Assembly: GCF_003334255.1 (NCBI RefSeq)
Contig: NZ_QOWU01000010.1
Direction: 5' to 3' (one strand)
Source: Escherichia coli
Lineage (GTDB): Bacteria; Pseudomonadota; Gammaproteobacteria; Enterobacterales; Enterobacteriaceae
Length of the DNA: 64,000 nucleotides
Each line of letters opens with the position of its first letter. The first letter of the stretch is position 1. Below the pieces are notes generated by a model, which made no database searches, was not told the DNA's origin, and worked only from the letters and a program-made list of their open reading frames with translations. A program made the position numbers and the translations under genes. Positions 42,416 to 48,119 of the stretch are shown in pieces.

Positions 42416-43645
42416 GTGAGCAGAGCAATGAACAAACTGAGCGATACCTTGCTAAGGAAACTTCATGGTAAGCCAGCGGAGAAAAACACGTTTTATAGTG
42501 ATGGCGGAAACCTGAGCGTGAAATATTTAACATCAGGGAAATTGACCTGGTATTTCACATACAGGGCCGGAACGGGAAGGGAGACACGACCCGAACGCAT
42601 TAAGCTGGGAAGTTATCCTGATCTGAGCCTGAAAGCAGCCAGGGAAAAAGCCGCACAGTGTCGCACATGGCTGGCTGAGGGGAAAAATCCACGTCATGAG
42701 ATGAATTACACCGTACAGGAAGCGTTAAAGCCCGTAACGGTTGGCGATGCGCTCACCTACTGGCTTGAGTATTACGTAAAGGAAAACCGCGTGGATTATA
42801 TCGCCCTGAAAAGGCGACTTAATAATCACGTAATACAGCAGATTGGTGCTATGCCGCTGGATAAATGCGAGCTACGGCACTGGCTGGCCTGTTTTGACCA
42901 GGTGGCAAAGCGAACGCCTGTTACTGCCGGATTCGTGCTACAGGCGTGCAAACAGGCGCTTAAGTTCTGCCGTAGGCGGCGCTATGCAATCAGCAACGTT
43001 CTGGACGATCTGAACGTGGCGGACGTTGGGAAAAAACCGGATATAAGCGAACGTGTCTTAAGTAACAAAGAACTTGGCGAATTATTGCAGGCACTGGACA
43101 AAAAAATATTTTCCCCTTACTACGTCGCGTTAATCCGCCTCCTGATTGTCTTCGGAGCCAGGACGGTAGAACTGAGGCTATCGGAGATCGGGGAGTGGGA
43201 TTTTACGGAAATGCTATGGACCGTTCCGAAGGAGCACAGCAAAACGAAGGTCGCAATATTCCGGCCCATACCGGAAGCGATCCTGCCGTTCGTCACGCAG
43301 CTGGTGGAGCAGAACAGGCACACGGGCTTATTGCTGGGGGAAGTGAAACAGGAGGCCAGCGTATCGCAGTATGGAAGATTAGCGCACAGGAGGCTTAATC
43401 ATCCTCACTGGTCACTGCATGACATCCGGCGCACCTTTACAACCATGCTGAACGATTTAGGCGTTGATCCGCATGTCGTGGAGCAGCTTACAGGTCATCA
43501 GATGCCAGGAATGCAGCGAGTTTATAATCATTCCCGTTATCTGGATGCTAAACGCAATGCGCTGGATATGTGGATGGAGCGGTTAGGGATACTGGCGGGA
43601 ACACATGAAAACGTAACCACGCTACCAGTAGCCAGAAGAAAATAA
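42416..43645 (+). CDS. int: tyrosine integrase, P4-type
   Basis: 409-aa ORF, GTG start after AGAGGGGG; N-terminal arm-binding domain, C-terminal catalytic region with HDIRRT and downstream Tyr (RVYNHSRY). Confidence 0.9.
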   Translation: MSRAMNKLSDTLLRKLHGKPAEKNTFYSDGGNLSVKYLTSGKLTWYFTYRAGTGRETRPERIKLGSYPDLSLKAAREKAAQCRTWLAEGKNPRHEMNYTVQEALKPVTVGDALTYWLEYYVKENRVDYIALKRRLNNHVIQQIGAMPLDKCELRHWLACFDQVAKRTPVTAGFVLQACKQALKFCRRRRYAISNVLDDLNVADVGKKPDISERVLSNKELGELLQALDKKIFSPYYVALIRLLIVFGARTVELRLSEIGEWDFTEMLWTVPKEHSKTKVAIFRPIPEAILPFVTQLVEQNRHTGLLLGEVKQEASVSQYGRLAHRRLNHPHWSLHDIRRTFTTMLNDLGVDPHVVEQLTGHQMPGMQRVYNHSRYLDAKRNALDMWMERLGILAGTHENVTTLPVARRK

Positions 43646-44019: not shown

Positions 44020-44208
44020 GTGTTAAGCACTGATCGGTTTATACGTGAAAAAGAATGCGAAAAGCTAACAGGCCTTAGCCGCTCATGCCGCTACCGCCTG
44101 GAAAAGGCCGGACAATTCCCATCACGTCGTAAACTTGGCGGTCGTTCCGTTGGCTGGTCTTTATCCGAGGTTCTGGCCTGGAAGGATAGCTGCAAGGCAG
44201 TTCATTAA
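44020..44208 (+). CDS. alpA: AlpA-family phage transcriptional regulator / excision activator
   Basis: 62-aa ORF, GTG start after AAGGGGG; MLSTDRFIREKECEKLTGLSRSCRYRLEKAGQFPSRRKLGGRSVGWSLSEVLAWK matches AlpA/Vis-type HTH proteins. Confidence 0.85.
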   Translation: MLSTDRFIREKECEKLTGLSRSCRYRLEKAGQFPSRRKLGGRSVGWSLSEVLAWKDSCKAVH

Positions 44209-44351
44209 TCACGCTGGCGGCACACAGCCGCCACACATCAATCATCTGAACACAGAGCTATAACCATGAAGATTGAATATACGCCAGAACGTGGGCGGGG
44301 ATTCGTTCGCCCTGGTGAGACTGGAAAACCACAAAATTGGGGTTTTTCAGG

Positions 44352-44388
44352 CATAAAAAAAGCGGCCCCGAAATGGAGCCGCCTTTCT
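44352..44388 (-). terminator. rho-independent terminator for minus-strand island transcript
   Basis: On minus strand: AAAGGCGGCTCC-atttc-GGGGCCGCTTT followed by T7. Confidence 0.45.
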
Positions 44389-44477
44389 GAACAGATAACA
44401 CGCTGCGCCGTTTGTGTGTGTGATCCCAAACATAAGCACGGGGATGATAGCCGCTATCAGGCTGGTGGGCAATGCAA

Positions 44478-44651
44478 TCAGTCTGGTTCAGTTCGTTGCC
44501 ATACCTGCAATGAGCGCTTTTCCCTGTACTCTTTAAGGAATTGCTCAAGGGCAAAAGCACATGGCGCGAATCTTTCTGATTCATGCTCTATCTTTCTGCG
44601 CCGTCTTTTCCGTGCCGGTGATAATGTTTTGGTCAATTCTTTATCGGTCAT
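44478..44651 (-). CDS. hypothetical small basic protein (57 aa)
   Basis: MTDKELTKTLSPARKRRRRKIEHESERF...; ATG preceded by AGGA; downstream of orf101 on same strand, before the minus-strand terminator. Confidence 0.3.
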   Translation of the reverse strand: MTDKELTKTLSPARKRRRRKIEHESERFAPCAFALEQFLKEYREKRSLQVWQRTEPD

Positions 44652-44708
44652 TGTGTTGTCCTGCATAGCAATGCGCCGTAATACCTCACACCACGGCGCT
44701 GATAGTGA

Positions 44709-45014
44709 TTATTCTGATTCTTTGGCCTTGCGGCGCTGTAGTTCTTCACGAGCGATGGCGATAAGTTGCCCGAGTTCTTCCGTAGCTTTAATACCAATTT
44801 TTTCCACTTGCGCCAATGCATCGAGAGAAGAAATCAGAGGATTTTCACTGCTTCCTTCTGCCTGGCGGCGGGCGATCTCCCCGCGCATGGCGGTTACTAT
44901 GAATCCGGCGTTGCTTTCGCCGTCCAGTTTTACGGATTCCATGCCATCAAAAGCATCATGTGGGATACGAATTGAAATCTGTTTTGATTTGTCGTTGATA
45001 GTGTTTTTTGCCAT
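44709..45014 (-). CDS. hypothetical protein (101 aa), candidate island regulator
   Basis: MAKNTINDKSKQISIRIPHDAFDG...; ATG preceded by AGGAGA; reads away from paired operator-like inverted repeats. Confidence 0.55.
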   Translation of the reverse strand: MAKNTINDKSKQISIRIPHDAFDGMESVKLDGESNAGFIVTAMRGEIARRQAEGSSENPLISSLDALAQVEKIGIKATEELGQLIAIAREELQRRKAKESE

Positions 45015-45036
45015 GTGCATTCTCCTAAACAAAAGA

Positions 45037-45112
45037 TGTGATTCAGTATACACAAAAAAGAATCACAAAAAACACTTGACCTGTGATTCAGTTGAATTTA
45101 ATTTAAATCACA
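45037..45112. promoter_or_regulatory. divergent promoter region with two operator-like inverted repeats
   Basis: TGTGATTC-N15-GAATCACA (45037-45067) and TGTGATTC-N16-AATCACA (45082-45112); TTGACC -35-like hexamer at 45076-45081. Confidence 0.55.
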
Positions 45113-45201
45113 CCTCAGTAAGAGGATGTAAACGACAACGCCCCGAACTGTTTGCGGCAGTAGCGGGGCGTCTAACCAAACCGTTAACAGGAGTAACGAT
45201 T

Positions 45202-45399
45202 ATGGCTGGAACACAGCATACCCCACGTCTGGCGCACACACAAACTGCCTTTGTGTGGCGTTTTCTGGCACTAAGTGCCGGAGAATCTCAAATCATCCAC
45301 GTAACCGCCTGGACGGAACGCGAAGCGCGTAGCCGTTGCCCGTCCGGTTGTGTTGCTGTATTCGCCGCCCGTATTCGTCAGGGGGTGTGCCATGCCTGA
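45202..45399 (+). CDS. small protein (65 aa), possibly Icd/Ash-like
   Basis: MAGTQHTPRLAHTQTAFVWRFLALSAGESQ...; ATG after AGGAG (45189-45193); first gene rightward of the operator region; family assignment from memory only. Confidence 0.45.
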   Translation: MAGTQHTPRLAHTQTAFVWRFLALSAGESQIIHVTAWTEREARSRCPSGCVAVFAARIRQGVCHA

Positions 45400-45712
45400 C
45401 ATGACCAATTACCAGTACCTGATTAATCCGCATTTTAACTGTGAGCATGATATTGCTAAAAAGGTTTATTCCGCTGCGGATGGGGCTACTGACAATATAT
45501 CAATGGCTGTTTCGTCAATTGGTAGCCTGATGTGGTATGCGTCAGAAAATAAGGAATATGACGAAAAGGCCATGCGCATTGATATGGGTAATATTGGTTT
45601 GTTACTGGCAATGCTTGGACATTTTGATATTTCGTTACGGTGCACCATTGAAAATGCCACAGATGCATTAAATGCTATAAAGAAAGCGAATACTGATTCA
45701 AATCGGGGATAA
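45392..45712 (+). CDS. hypothetical protein (106 aa)
   Basis: MPDMTNYQYLINPHFNCEHDIAKKVYSAADG...; start overlaps previous stop; no family recognised. Confidence 0.5.
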   Translation: MPDMTNYQYLINPHFNCEHDIAKKVYSAADGATDNISMAVSSIGSLMWYASENKEYDEKAMRIDMGNIGLLLAMLGHFDISLRCTIENATDALNAIKKANTDSNRG

Positions 45713-45718
45713 ATAATC

Positions 45719-46018
45719 ATGAGAACGTATTTATCTGGCTTTACTGCCAGCGGTTATGCACACCCCAAAATTATCCCCGGCGCTATTTATCTGGATAAGA
45801 ACGGTAACAGAGTAACGGTAAAAGAACTGATGTTTGACCGTGTGTATTTTATTCGTGATGGCTATTCATTTCATAGTTCGCTGAACGTGGAGATCTTTAT
45901 TAGCAGATTCCGGCGGGAAATCCCGCTTTCCAGAAATAACCATGTGTCATGTATGGATGTTGATAAAAAACTACAGGAACTGAAAAACATGATTGCCGCG
46001 TGGAGAGAGCAGAAATGA
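45719..46018 (+). CDS. hypothetical protein (99 aa)
   Basis: MRTYLSGFTASGYAHPKIIPGAIYLDKNGNRVTVKELMFDRVYFIRDGYSF...; stop overlaps primase start (ATGA). Confidence 0.5.
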   Translation: MRTYLSGFTASGYAHPKIIPGAIYLDKNGNRVTVKELMFDRVYFIRDGYSFHSSLNVEIFISRFRREIPLSRNNHVSCMDVDKKLQELKNMIAAWREQK

Positions 46019-47832
46019 AAAAAGCGCCAAATTTAAAACACCAGCCGCGTGACAAAATGACGGAAGTCATCATTTTTGCGGGTAGTGATGCGTGGGCACA
46101 TGCGAAGCAGTGGCAGGAACAGGACGGGCGACTGGCTGGCGATAACGTGCCACCTGTCTGGCTTGGAGAGCAACAACTTGCCGAACTGGACAACCTGCAA
46201 ATCGTACCGGACGGACGCTATCGCGTGCGTCTCTACCAGGCGGGGTTATTGCGTCCGGGGCTTGTTAATACCATCGGGCAGAAACTGGCAGCGGCAGGTG
46301 TCAGGGATGCTGATTATTACCCTGAAGGAATGCACAGCCAGAAACGGGAGAACTGGCGCGAATATCTGGAACGTGAGCGGGGAGAGCTGGCGGAAAAGAA
46401 AAAGGTAGTTGAACTGCCTGTAAAGAAAAAAGAGCGGGTAAAAGACGATAACGCTTCATCACTGGCGCTTAACCAGATGGGAGCAAGTCAACGCGGCGAA
46501 GTTCTCCTGGCACATTATGGCGGTGAACTGGCGATTCATGCTGACTCTGACACTGTTCACTATTACAACGGCGTTGTATGGGAGCCAGTACAGGATAAAG
46601 AATTACAGCGAGCTATGGCGCAGATTTTCATTGATGCGGAGATCAGCTATTCGCAGAACGCCATTAAATCGGCGGTCGATACCATGAAGTTAAGTTTGCC
46701 TGTAATGGGGAATACAGCCCGTAACCTGATTGGATTCAGTAACGGTGTTTTTGATACCCGGACAGGCGATTTTCGGGAGCATAACAAAAACGACTGGTTG
46801 TTAATTGCCAGTGAATTACCTTTCAGCCCACCAGCAGAGGGGGAAACGCTGGCAACACATGCGCCGAATTTCTGGAAGTGGTTACGCCGTTCGGTGGCTG
46901 AGAATGACCGCAAGGCGGATCGCGTACTGGCTGCATTATTCATGGTGCTGGCGAACCGGTACGACTGGCAGTTATTCATTGAGGTAACAGGTCCAGGGGG
47001 AAGTGGTAAAAGCGTGATGGCGGAGATTTGCACCATGCTGGCGGGTAAGGCCAACACGGTATCGGCAAGCATGAAGGCGCTGGAAGATGCCAGGGAACGC
47101 GCGTTAGTGGTTGGCTTTTCGCTGATTATCATGCCGGATATGACCCGTTACGCTGGTGATGGCGCAGGAATTAAGGCCATTACAGGCGGTGACAAGGTGG
47201 CAATCGACCCGAAGCATAAAGCCCCCTACTCAACACGCATTCAGGCGGTAGTGTTGGCGGTGAACAATAACGCCATGTCATTCAGTGACCGCAGCGGGGG
47301 GATTTCACGTCGTCGGGTGATATTCAATTTTTCGGAGGTTGTACCGGAAAACGAACGCGACCCCATGCTGGCAGAAAAAATAGAAGGAGAGCTGGCGGTT
47401 GTGATTCGCCACCTGCTTACTCGTTTTTCTGACCAGGACGCAGCTAAACGCCTGCTGTATGAGCAGCAGAAATCAGAAGAAGCTCTGGTGATAAAACGCG
47501 AGGGCGATTCGCTGGTGGACTTCTGCGGCTATCTCATGTCGTCGGTAATGTGTGATGGTCTGTTAGTGGGTAATGCCGAAATTATTCCGTTCAGTCCGCG
47601 CAGGTATCTTTATCACGCCTATCTGGCATATATGAGGGCACACGGATTCGGTAAACCTGTAACACTGACGCGCTTCGGTAAAGATATGCCGGGGGCAATG
47701 GCGGAATATGGCAGGGAGTATATGAAACGGAAAACGAAGCACGGTTTGCGTTCAAACGTGACACTGACGGAGGAATCAGAAGACTGGATGCCATCATGTG
47801 TATCGGTCACTAATGACGATAGCAAAAATTAA
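46015..47832 (+). CDS. P4 alpha-like replication protein (primase/NTPase, P-loop)
   Basis: 605-aa ORF with Walker A GPGGSGKS and Walker B-like region; followed immediately by TGTTCACC iteron cluster. Confidence 0.8.
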   Translation: MKKAPNLKHQPRDKMTEVIIFAGSDAWAHAKQWQEQDGRLAGDNVPPVWLGEQQLAELDNLQIVPDGRYRVRLYQAGLLRPGLVNTIGQKLAAAGVRDADYYPEGMHSQKRENWREYLERERGELAEKKKVVELPVKKKERVKDDNASSLALNQMGASQRGEVLLAHYGGELAIHADSDTVHYYNGVVWEPVQDKELQRAMAQIFIDAEISYSQNAIKSAVDTMKLSLPVMGNTARNLIGFSNGVFDTRTGDFREHNKNDWLLIASELPFSPPAEGETLATHAPNFWKWLRRSVAENDRKADRVLAALFMVLANRYDWQLFIEVTGPGGSGKSVMAEICTMLAGKANTVSASMKALEDARERALVVGFSLIIMPDMTRYAGDGAGIKAITGGDKVAIDPKHKAPYSTRIQAVVLAVNNNAMSFSDRSGGISRRRVIFNFSEVVPENERDPMLAEKIEGELAVVIRHLLTRFSDQDAAKRLLYEQQKSEEALVIKREGDSLVDFCGYLMSSVMCDGLLVGNAEIIPFSPRRYLYHAYLAYMRAHGFGKPVTLTRFGKDMPGAMAEYGREYMKRKTKHGLRSNVTLTEESEDWMPSCVSVTNDDSKN

Positions 47833-47846
47833 ACTTATGGAATAAC

Positions 47847-48076
47847 TGTTCACCACTGTTCACCCTGTCATAAATATCTTTTGTATCAGTATGTTATAGG
47901 GTGAACAGTTATTTATGAACTGTTCACCAAACTATTCACTGTTCACCTTTTTGATTGTTTATTGAGCTTCAAGGGTGAACAGTGGTGAATAGTTGGTGAA
48001 TAGTTTTTGTGAAACTGTTCACCCCTTAACATTATGAATTAAAAGATAAAATATCAAAAGGTGAACAGGTGAAGGG
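47847..48076. repeat. iteron cluster (TGTTCACC / GGTGAACA), candidate origin of replication
   Basis: At least 8 exact 8-mers in both orientations (47847, 47857, 47899, 47921, 47940, 47974, 48016, 48060) plus degenerate GGTGAATA copies in an AT-rich 230-bp non-coding stretch. Confidence 0.8.
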
Positions 48077-48119
48077 TTAAAACGCAAAAATTTTAATTTA
48101 CTGCTGTGAGATAAAGCCT

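Follow-up and report, generated by a model that had tools for sequence, protein, structure and literature searches.

Two short open reading frames, here termed ORF106 and ORF99, lie between the switch region and the replication gene of a phage satellite in Escherichia coli (contig NZ_QOWU01000010.1), within a window (the whole stretch of DNA analysed) of 64,000 nucleotides. We propose that both are early genes of the satellite's replication operon, with ORF99 coupled to the replication protein Rep, and, the roles being partly a matter of reasoning from context, we give this reading a probability of roughly 0.55. The pair does not constitute a new system, although the allele class to which ORF99 belongs is new within a known family. 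The result is thus mostly a clarification: a member of a known family is accompanied by a member of an uncharacterised satellite family.

The element that carries the two genes is a capsid-forming PICI (cf-PICI) of the EcCIEDL933 type, inserted in tqsA (ydgG), which adjoins pntB. It possesses int, alpA, rep with an adjacent ori and its own capsid, protease, portal, connector and terminase genes, as befits a cf-PICI, and no tail genes were found among the ORFs of the window. EcCIEDL933, the prototype cf-PICI, is organised likewise (bioRxiv 10.1101/2022.09.08.507074) and is identical with O-island 51 (OI-51), or Sp7, of E. coli O157:H7. An annotated island in E. coli G1/2 is near-identical to the one in the window.

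The left end of the island is formed by a tyrosine integrase gene (42416..43645, plus strand; 100% identical to that of the G1/2 island). It is followed by a gene for an AlpA-type regulator/excisionase (44020..44208, plus strand; phrog_2790, 2e-17; 98-100% identical to the alpA genes of related islands) and by a divergent gene of the YlcI/YnfO family (44709..45053, minus strand; NF041551, 4e-18; phrog_6522, 3e-57), a candidate switch regulator. Repeat analysis of the switch region between the divergent operons (45037..45117) revealed operator-like repeats, namely two copies of TGTGATTCAGT plus the inverted copies GAATCACA and AATCACAC. The plus-strand operon opens with a gene for an Icd-like protein of 65 aa (icd, 45202..45399; NF033153, 5e-18) and continues with ORF106 (45392..45712), ORF99 (45719..46018) and rep (46015..47832), which encodes a protein of 605 aa annotated as a 'primase'. 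An iteron field (47840..48080) with at least 10 copies of CTGTTCACC / GGTGAACAG in both orientations comes next and is the probable replication origin of the satellite. Beyond it lie ssb, a PerC-like gene and then the capsid, protease, portal, connector, HNH and terminase genes. A preliminary description of this DNA had the operon ending in the primase gene; no terminator-like site was found 3' of that gene, and same-strand genes continue past it.

ORF106 and ORF99 are genuine protein-coding genes, and the coordinates (45392-46018) and lengths first given for them (106 and 99 aa) proved exact. Each begins with ATG and is preceded by a purine-rich Shine-Dalgarno site (GGGGG for ORF106, GGGGA for ORF99, with GGAGAG before rep), and their products are acidic (pI 4.95) and basic (pI 9.7), respectively. 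Translational coupling by overlapping stops and starts, as originally supposed, is borne out at both outer junctions: icd and ORF106 share 8 nt at stop and start (ATGCCTGA), and ORF99 and rep share 4 nt (ATGA). It does not extend to the junction between the two ORFs, which are separated by 6 nt (TAAATAATCATG). Because its stop codon overlaps the start of rep, ORF99 is translated in obligatory coupling with Rep. A consensus promoter scan detected no plus-strand promoter-like site inside either ORF, and an Rfam scan detected no RNA family in either.

A check of conservation, which had been recommended at the outset, showed that the 627-bp block spanning ORF106 and ORF99 is kept at an identity of at least 90% in 474 of 5,426 complete E. 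coli genomes. In approximately 75 related loci from viral contigs, ORF106 was represented by 53 unique alleles and ORF99 by 50, and an internal stop or an indel occurred in none of them. The ratio dN/dS was 0.34 for ORF106 and 0.31 for ORF99, as against 0.22 for the N-terminal domain of Rep and 0.05 for the remainder of Rep. It is these alleles without stops or indels, together with a dN/dS near 0.3, that identify both ORFs as real coding genes. Both are AT-rich, with GC contents of 0.40 and 0.42 against 0.50-0.58 in their neighbours, which suggests separate acquisition and speaks against the reading as operon genes.

No motif had been recognised in either protein. This holds for ORF106, which has no match in Pfam, NCBIfam or PADLOC, but not for ORF99, residues 16 to 67 of which align with positions 1-52 of the 53 in the Pfam model DUF4222 (PF13973; E = 1e-16). 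ORF99 also matches phrog_285, and in a Foldseek search of AFDB50 its matches were almost exclusively DUF4222 proteins. Sequence comparison places ORF99, as a divergent allele class, in the RgdR (ECs1581)/DUF4222 family, a published family (PMC3378721), so that its listing as an unknown payload gene has to be given up.

RgdR is a 99-aa protein of OI-51 in E. coli O157:H7 (Flockhart et al. 2012, PMC3378721). It acts as an activator of LEE1 and type III secretion and as a repressor of motility, and its binding to DNA is non-specific (PMC3378721). Its expression increases Congo red binding as well as repressing motility, deletion of rgdR lowers type III secretion, and deletion of the whole of OI-51 lowers colonisation of sheep (PMC3378721). 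LEE activation has been linked to an RGD motif at residues 20-22; a commensal allele from strain ED1a with CGD in its place, 94% similar and at the same integration site, is inactive and does not bind DNA (PMC3378721). RgdR has been said to be encoded by all E. coli PICIs analysed (Fillol-Salom et al. 2018, PMC6092414).

ORF99 resembles RgdR in being a basic DUF4222 protein of 99 aa whose gene comes last before the replication gene and overlaps it as ATGA. It lies, moreover, immediately upstream of a replication gene similar to that for P4 alpha in an island of the OI-51 type; in Sp7 of strain Sakai, ECs1581 likewise sits directly before the replication gene and overlaps it. The two proteins align without gaps over 99 residues (29% identity, 44% positives, E = 4e-12), which leaves ORF99 below the limit of >77% similarity to ECs1581 over 99 aa that defines the published set of RgdR orthologues (PMC3378721). 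The RGD of RgdR is replaced in ORF99 by P20-G21-A22, and only G21 of this triplet is conserved across the DUF4222 family. Since mosaic alleles joining ORF99-type (hereafter o99-type) and RgdR-type segments exist, the two types represent allele classes at one locus.

A structure model of ORF99 predicts a Tudor/SH3-like beta-barrel followed by a C-terminal helix. Small beta-barrels are a very common fold. Tudor-like domains that interact with RNA polymerase (the CarD/CdnL N-domain, the UvrD/PcrA C-terminal domain, Mfd RID and NusG/Spt5 KOW) are 8-15% identical to ORF99, and the modelled likeness may be taken as a lead rather than as a sign of family membership. Profiles of the ORF106 and ORF99 families and of the Rep N-terminal domain retrieved nothing significant in a sequence search of the PDB.

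The product of rep carries the Pfam domains D5_N, DUF5906 (an SF3 helicase) and Pox_D5 and is 48% identical to residues 290-771 of P4 alpha. No primase domain was recognised in this 'primase', as both the preliminary description and the annotation name it. The first 140 residues of Rep (46015-46434, plus strand) correspond to the N-terminus of phrog_2850 and have no match in Pfam. It is with this N-terminal domain that DUF4222 proteins are associated. The 231 loci fetched contain 222 DUF4222 ORFs, of which 216 have a length of exactly 99 aa, and the gene that follows encodes a window-type Rep N-domain (its first ~140 residues) in 216 of the 222. The stop of the DUF4222 gene and the start of the replication gene overlap as ATGA in 219 of 220 testable copies.

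The Rep N-domain is joined to at least three types of C-terminal region: P4-alpha-like, DUF927-type and AAA_25-type. Iterons of the CTGTTCACC kind lie 3' of P4-alpha-like Rep genes whether the allele upstream is of the o99 type (59 loci) or the RgdR type (7 loci), and 14 loci where an o99-type allele precedes one of the other Rep types lack them, with one chance copy at most. The DUF4222 allele type is thus independent of Rep-ori specificity, and we rejected the allele as a determinant of origin specificity. That the iterons track the C-terminal type of Rep excludes an origin-specific role for ORF99 and weakens the case for a direct role in replication.

DUF4222 also occurs in lambdoid phages. 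A tblastn search of 50,697 phage records with RgdR matched 43 of them; only the RgdR-type query reached phage DUF4222 ORFs, and the same search with ORF99 returned nothing. In the phages and prophages inspected (SfIV, the e14 prophage, and lambdoid phages of Klebsiella and E. coli), a short DUF4222 ORF is situated between a cII-like gene and the replication gene, whose start it overlaps by 11 nt in e14 and SfIV. The e14 ORF matches DUF4222 in Pfam with an E-value of 9.5e-19. These ORFs share with ORF99 the domain and the place immediately upstream of a replication initiator gene. They differ in being 56-73 aa long and without the C-terminal helix, and the gene 3' of them encodes a replication protein of the O/primosomal type in place of a P4-alpha-like helicase. 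Often they carry no annotation, or ymfM-like genes run across them in a different frame. Annotated YmfM is itself no DUF4222 protein (hhalign probability 0.1, no Pfam match); at ymfM the DUF4222 domain is encoded in another reading frame than YmfM.

For ORF106, the proposed search for remote homology led to a family that is uncharacterised. The protein matches phrog_15327 over its entire length (residues 1-106 of 106; 2e-71) and phrog_6805 weakly. Single-sequence searches found almost only close relatives from E. coli; a profile search yielded 136 clusters of proteins of 100-108 aa, all from Enterobacterales. Residues G44, L46, M47, Y56, G69 and N88 are conserved in the family (phrog_15327 / phrog_6805), and ORF106 conforms to this pattern. 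The AlphaFold2 model is a helical hairpin (helices 19-51 and 58-105, pLDDT 85), for which Foldseek returned only generic helical hairpins from the PDB (E >1) and no specific neighbour. Matches to repeat proteins in the single-sequence searches were discarded as non-homologous, the score of the TPR-repeat protein P0058 being inflated by its 12 repeats. Many relatives of ORF106 in NCBI-sourced records are named 'ubiquinol-cytochrome C reductase'. Since no match to that effect was found in Pfam (40 members searched), PDB sequences or NCBIfam, this name appears to be a propagated mis-annotation.

Three divergent queries from the family found nothing in the 50,697 phage records (tblastn), for which reason the family appears, as far as database sequences go, to be restricted to satellites of Enterobacterales; it could serve as a PICI marker. 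Homologues with 30-43% identity keep the operon position between the Icd-like and Rep genes (loci L003-L010 and L238-L241). In four metagenomic satellites (L003-L006) an Icd-like gene, with an 8-nt overlap, is followed by an ORF106-like gene, a gene for a phrog_6610 protein and an AAA_25 Rep gene, and in four others (L007-L010) the ORF106-like gene keeps its position beside a DUF927-type replication protein. In Kluyvera the ORF106-like gene accompanies a D5_N Rep, and in helper-embedded islands of Klebsiella the order is ORF106-like gene, 72-aa ORF, DUF4222 and D5_N Rep. Retention of this position at 30-40% identity and next to different Rep types marks a module gene and does not fit cargo.

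Between icd and the DUF4222 gene there is, at the same time, a variable slot. Its length runs from 0 to ~1.9 kb, with at least 10 size classes, and the small ORFs inside it are unrelated; all the occupants tested are uncharacterised, and ORF106 is one of them. Where ORF106 precedes ORF99 in the window, ECs1578-1580 precede RgdR in Sp7; the breakpoints fall precisely on the stop of icd and immediately ahead of the start of the DUF4222 gene. ECs1578-1580 were rejected as homologues of ORF106 (no significant similarity by blastp or HMM), a cluster link between them being an artefact of over-extended ORF calls. Such variability has the look of cargo or arms-race genes and counts against the reading of ORF106 as part of a module. 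Inheritance of the block argues the other way. ORF106 stands directly upstream of o99-type alleles in 74 of 74 cases, and ORF106, ORF99 and the Rep N-domain remain 92-99% identical in islands where int, alpA, icd and ssb have diverged to 25-70%, with or without capsid genes nearby. The segment from ORF106 through ORF99 to the Rep N-domain therefore behaves as a recombination module with the replication gene at its centre.

Phage P4 offers a further comparison. The order of its left operon is epsilon, ORF151, cnr (ORF106, DUF5375) and alpha, so that P4 and the window have in common small genes between the immunity region and an alpha-type replication gene. P4 Cnr also has 106 aa and is encoded just upstream of alpha, but its equal length with our ORF106 is a coincidence: comparisons of the window proteins with epsilon, ORF151 and Cnr gave nothing better than E = 0.1 by blastp or HMM. 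Unlike P4 alpha, the Rep of the window is without the primase domain. The N-terminus of P4 ORF151 ('PGEIYRSAG') looks like DUF4222 to the eye and was rejected on HMM E-values of 0.1 or worse.

The preliminary description had regarded both ORFs as candidate accessory payload, that is, as proteins (ORF106 especially) that act on the helper, on rival phages or on host defences. We consider this possible but unlikely, and judge the same of its wider scope, which takes in interference, helper exploitation, derepression or anti-defence by functions dispensable for satellite replication. It draws on the slot, with its ten or more alternative and uncharacterised contents, and on the DUF4222 classes, whose 29% identity between conserved flanks and whose mosaics are typical of specificity or arms-race genes. 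An acidic, helical ORF106 also resembles many small protein inhibitors. The idea that satellites carry accessory genes at this position finds a parallel in P4, where the helper-derepression gene epsilon has an analogous place, but the documented hot spots of immunity genes in PICIs are elsewhere, at either end of the island (5' and 3') and downstream of pri (PMC11364771), and epsilon, as noted above, is not similar in sequence to either protein. EcCIEDL933, which is experimentally functional and is induced and transferred by helper phages (bioRxiv 10.1101/2022.09.08.507074), is without ORF106 and has three other small genes in the slot. ORF106 is thus not generally required for the cf-PICI cycle, as expected of payload. 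Absence from otherwise identical functional islands, with no phenotype on deletion, had been named in advance as grounds for rejecting a payload function, and it was found in part, for ORF106 in this one cf-PICI. Against payload, PADLOC-DB v2, searched with ORF106, ORF99 and the neighbouring genes, gave no match to a defence system at E-values up to 1; the position of the ORF106 family is kept across distant satellites; a dN/dS near 0.3 reveals no positive selection within the allele class; and DUF4222 is near-universal, coupled to rep and present in phages too. What survives of the claim for this site is the variable slot and an uncharacterised ORF106 family with no phage match, but not ORF99, which is locked to rep in 219 of 220 copies. 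The payload hypothesis keeps some probability, mainly for ORF106.

Alternatively, ORF99 might be kept for the reprogramming of host transcription in the lysogen, as a 'moron', with ORF106 an unrelated passenger. The deletion and expression phenotypes of RgdR and OI-51 (type III secretion, colonisation, motility and Congo red binding; PMC3378721) are in keeping with this, as is a PerC-family regulator encoded in the same island. We nevertheless regard it as improbable: the allele in the window is 29% identical to RgdR and has PGA for RGD at residues 20-22, when even the 94%-similar ED1a allele (CGD) is inactive and fails to bind DNA (PMC3378721); DUF4222 proteins also occur where there is no LEE, in strains as well as in phages; and a benefit to the lysogen leaves the near-universal ATGA coupling to rep unexplained. 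The pair could also be imagined as a toxin-antitoxin or abortive-infection system in which acidic ORF106 neutralises basic ORF99. The genes are adjacent and small, their pI values (4.95 and 9.7) are complementary in this sense, and ORF106 never fails to precede an o99-type allele. This is highly improbable, however, because each family occurs with other partners: DUF4222 follows unrelated upstream genes in 139 loci and none in one, relatives of ORF106 pair with phrog_6610 proteins instead of DUF4222, and in Klebsiella the two have an additional gene between them. Neither PADLOC nor Pfam gave a toxin or antitoxin signature, and cloned RgdR was expressed alone with no toxicity reported (PMC3378721).

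We therefore return to ORF106 and ORF99 as early genes of the replication operon, and for their biochemical roles we infer the following. ORF99 would most likely be a general helper of the satellite's early or replication programme, perhaps a low-specificity factor associated with DNA or RNA polymerase and not a factor of origin specificity. The pleiotropic phenotypes of RgdR might then arise from a spill-over of such activity onto host transcription. ORF106 may be a protein-binding modulator that acts beside ORF99 and the Rep N-domain, or on a host or helper target. The synteny with the replication gene could also reflect the timing of co-expression alone.

The literature presents RgdR as a virulence regulator of EHEC and has never explained what it does for the island that encodes it. 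Coupling to rep, the lambdoid parallel and independence of the ori reframe RgdR-like proteins as factors of an early or replication module. A bolder and rather doubtful version holds that DUF4222/RgdR proteins are a dedicated class of replication-coupled early factors of lambdoid phages and their satellites alike, made in stoichiometry with the initiator, which would work on RNA polymerase or the nucleoid by way of a CarD-like Tudor domain and license replication of the element. Its corollary, about which we are equally tentative, is that the virulence phenotypes of RgdR are side effects and that ORF106 is a satellite-only partner which tunes the factor or redirects it to the helper. On the same reasoning the SfiC/YmfM filamentation of e14 is possibly a side effect too, because ymfM hides an out-of-frame DUF4222 ORF.

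The gene annotated as a 'primase' in the icd-ORF106-ORF99-Rep operon encodes Rep, a P4-alpha-like replication initiator in which a Pfam search found no primase catalytic domain. Its first 140 codons (46015-46434) specify an N-terminal domain with no match in Pfam or the PDB. Across satellites, this domain was found joined to at least three replication types (P4-alpha-like helicase, DUF927 and AAA_25), and its immediate upstream neighbour was always a DUF4222 gene, as with ORF99 here, or a phrog_6610 gene. A dense field of iterons, comprising at least 10 copies of CTGTTCACC / GGTGAACAG in both orientations together with long imperfect palindromes, begins 8 nt past the Rep stop codon (47840-48080) and is the probable replication origin of the satellite. 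In a comparison of at least 200 loci, the iterons were found to track the C-terminal type of Rep.

Upstream of icd, operator-like repeats (two copies of TGTGATTCAGT, with inverted GAATCACA and AATCACAC) were located at 45037-45117, where they separate the icd operon from a divergently oriented YlcI/YnfO-like gene. This region is likely to be the switch of the island. In the E. coli G1/2 island, which is near-identical elsewhere, a different sequence replaces it. A candidate plus-strand open frame of 377 aa (44266-45399) continues in frame into icd and overlaps two minus-strand genes that are well supported (44478-44666 and 44709-45053). The initial portion of this frame appears in the annotations of Sakai (ECs1576) and G1/2 as a hypothetical protein of 247 aa, and certain gene callers merge the frame with icd or with the gene for the predicted helical-hairpin protein ORF106 (proteins P0002 and P0057). 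Among relatives of ORF106, dozens of clusters in the family (P0072-P0165; Klebsiella, Erwinia, Raoultella and others) bear the source name 'ubiquinol-cytochrome C reductase'. This name has no backing from Pfam, NCBIfam or the PDB and looks like a propagated annotation error.

An unannotated DUF4222 ORF of 59 aa (Pfam 9.5e-19) was detected in the K-12 e14 prophage (L234:4002-4181; NC_000913.3 about 1204001-1204180), with corresponding ORFs in phage SfIV (L232:3938-4159) and in three further loci (L235-L237). The e14 ORF shares 11 nt with the beginning of ymfN/oweE, the replication gene. It lies, in another reading frame, within ymfM, a gene whose annotation reads 'cell division inhibitor YmfM' (SfiC), and is confined to the 3' half of that gene. 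When E. coli phages are compared with Klebsiella phages, the overlap region is, as judged by eye, ~90% conserved in the DUF4222 frame and ~50% in the YmfM frame. A ymfM clone has been described to cause filamentation (bioRxiv 10.1101/2020.11.19.390815); such a clone would include nearly the entire DUF4222 domain, and in the part of that preprint consulted the phenotype is not tied to either single reading frame.

Genes for an ORF106-like protein, DUF4222 and a D5_N Rep also occur together in a Klebsiella island (3258-9532 of contigs L238/L239). The island is flanked by phage head genes on one side and tail genes on the other, which makes it a helper-embedded PICI like those described previously (PMC10111431).
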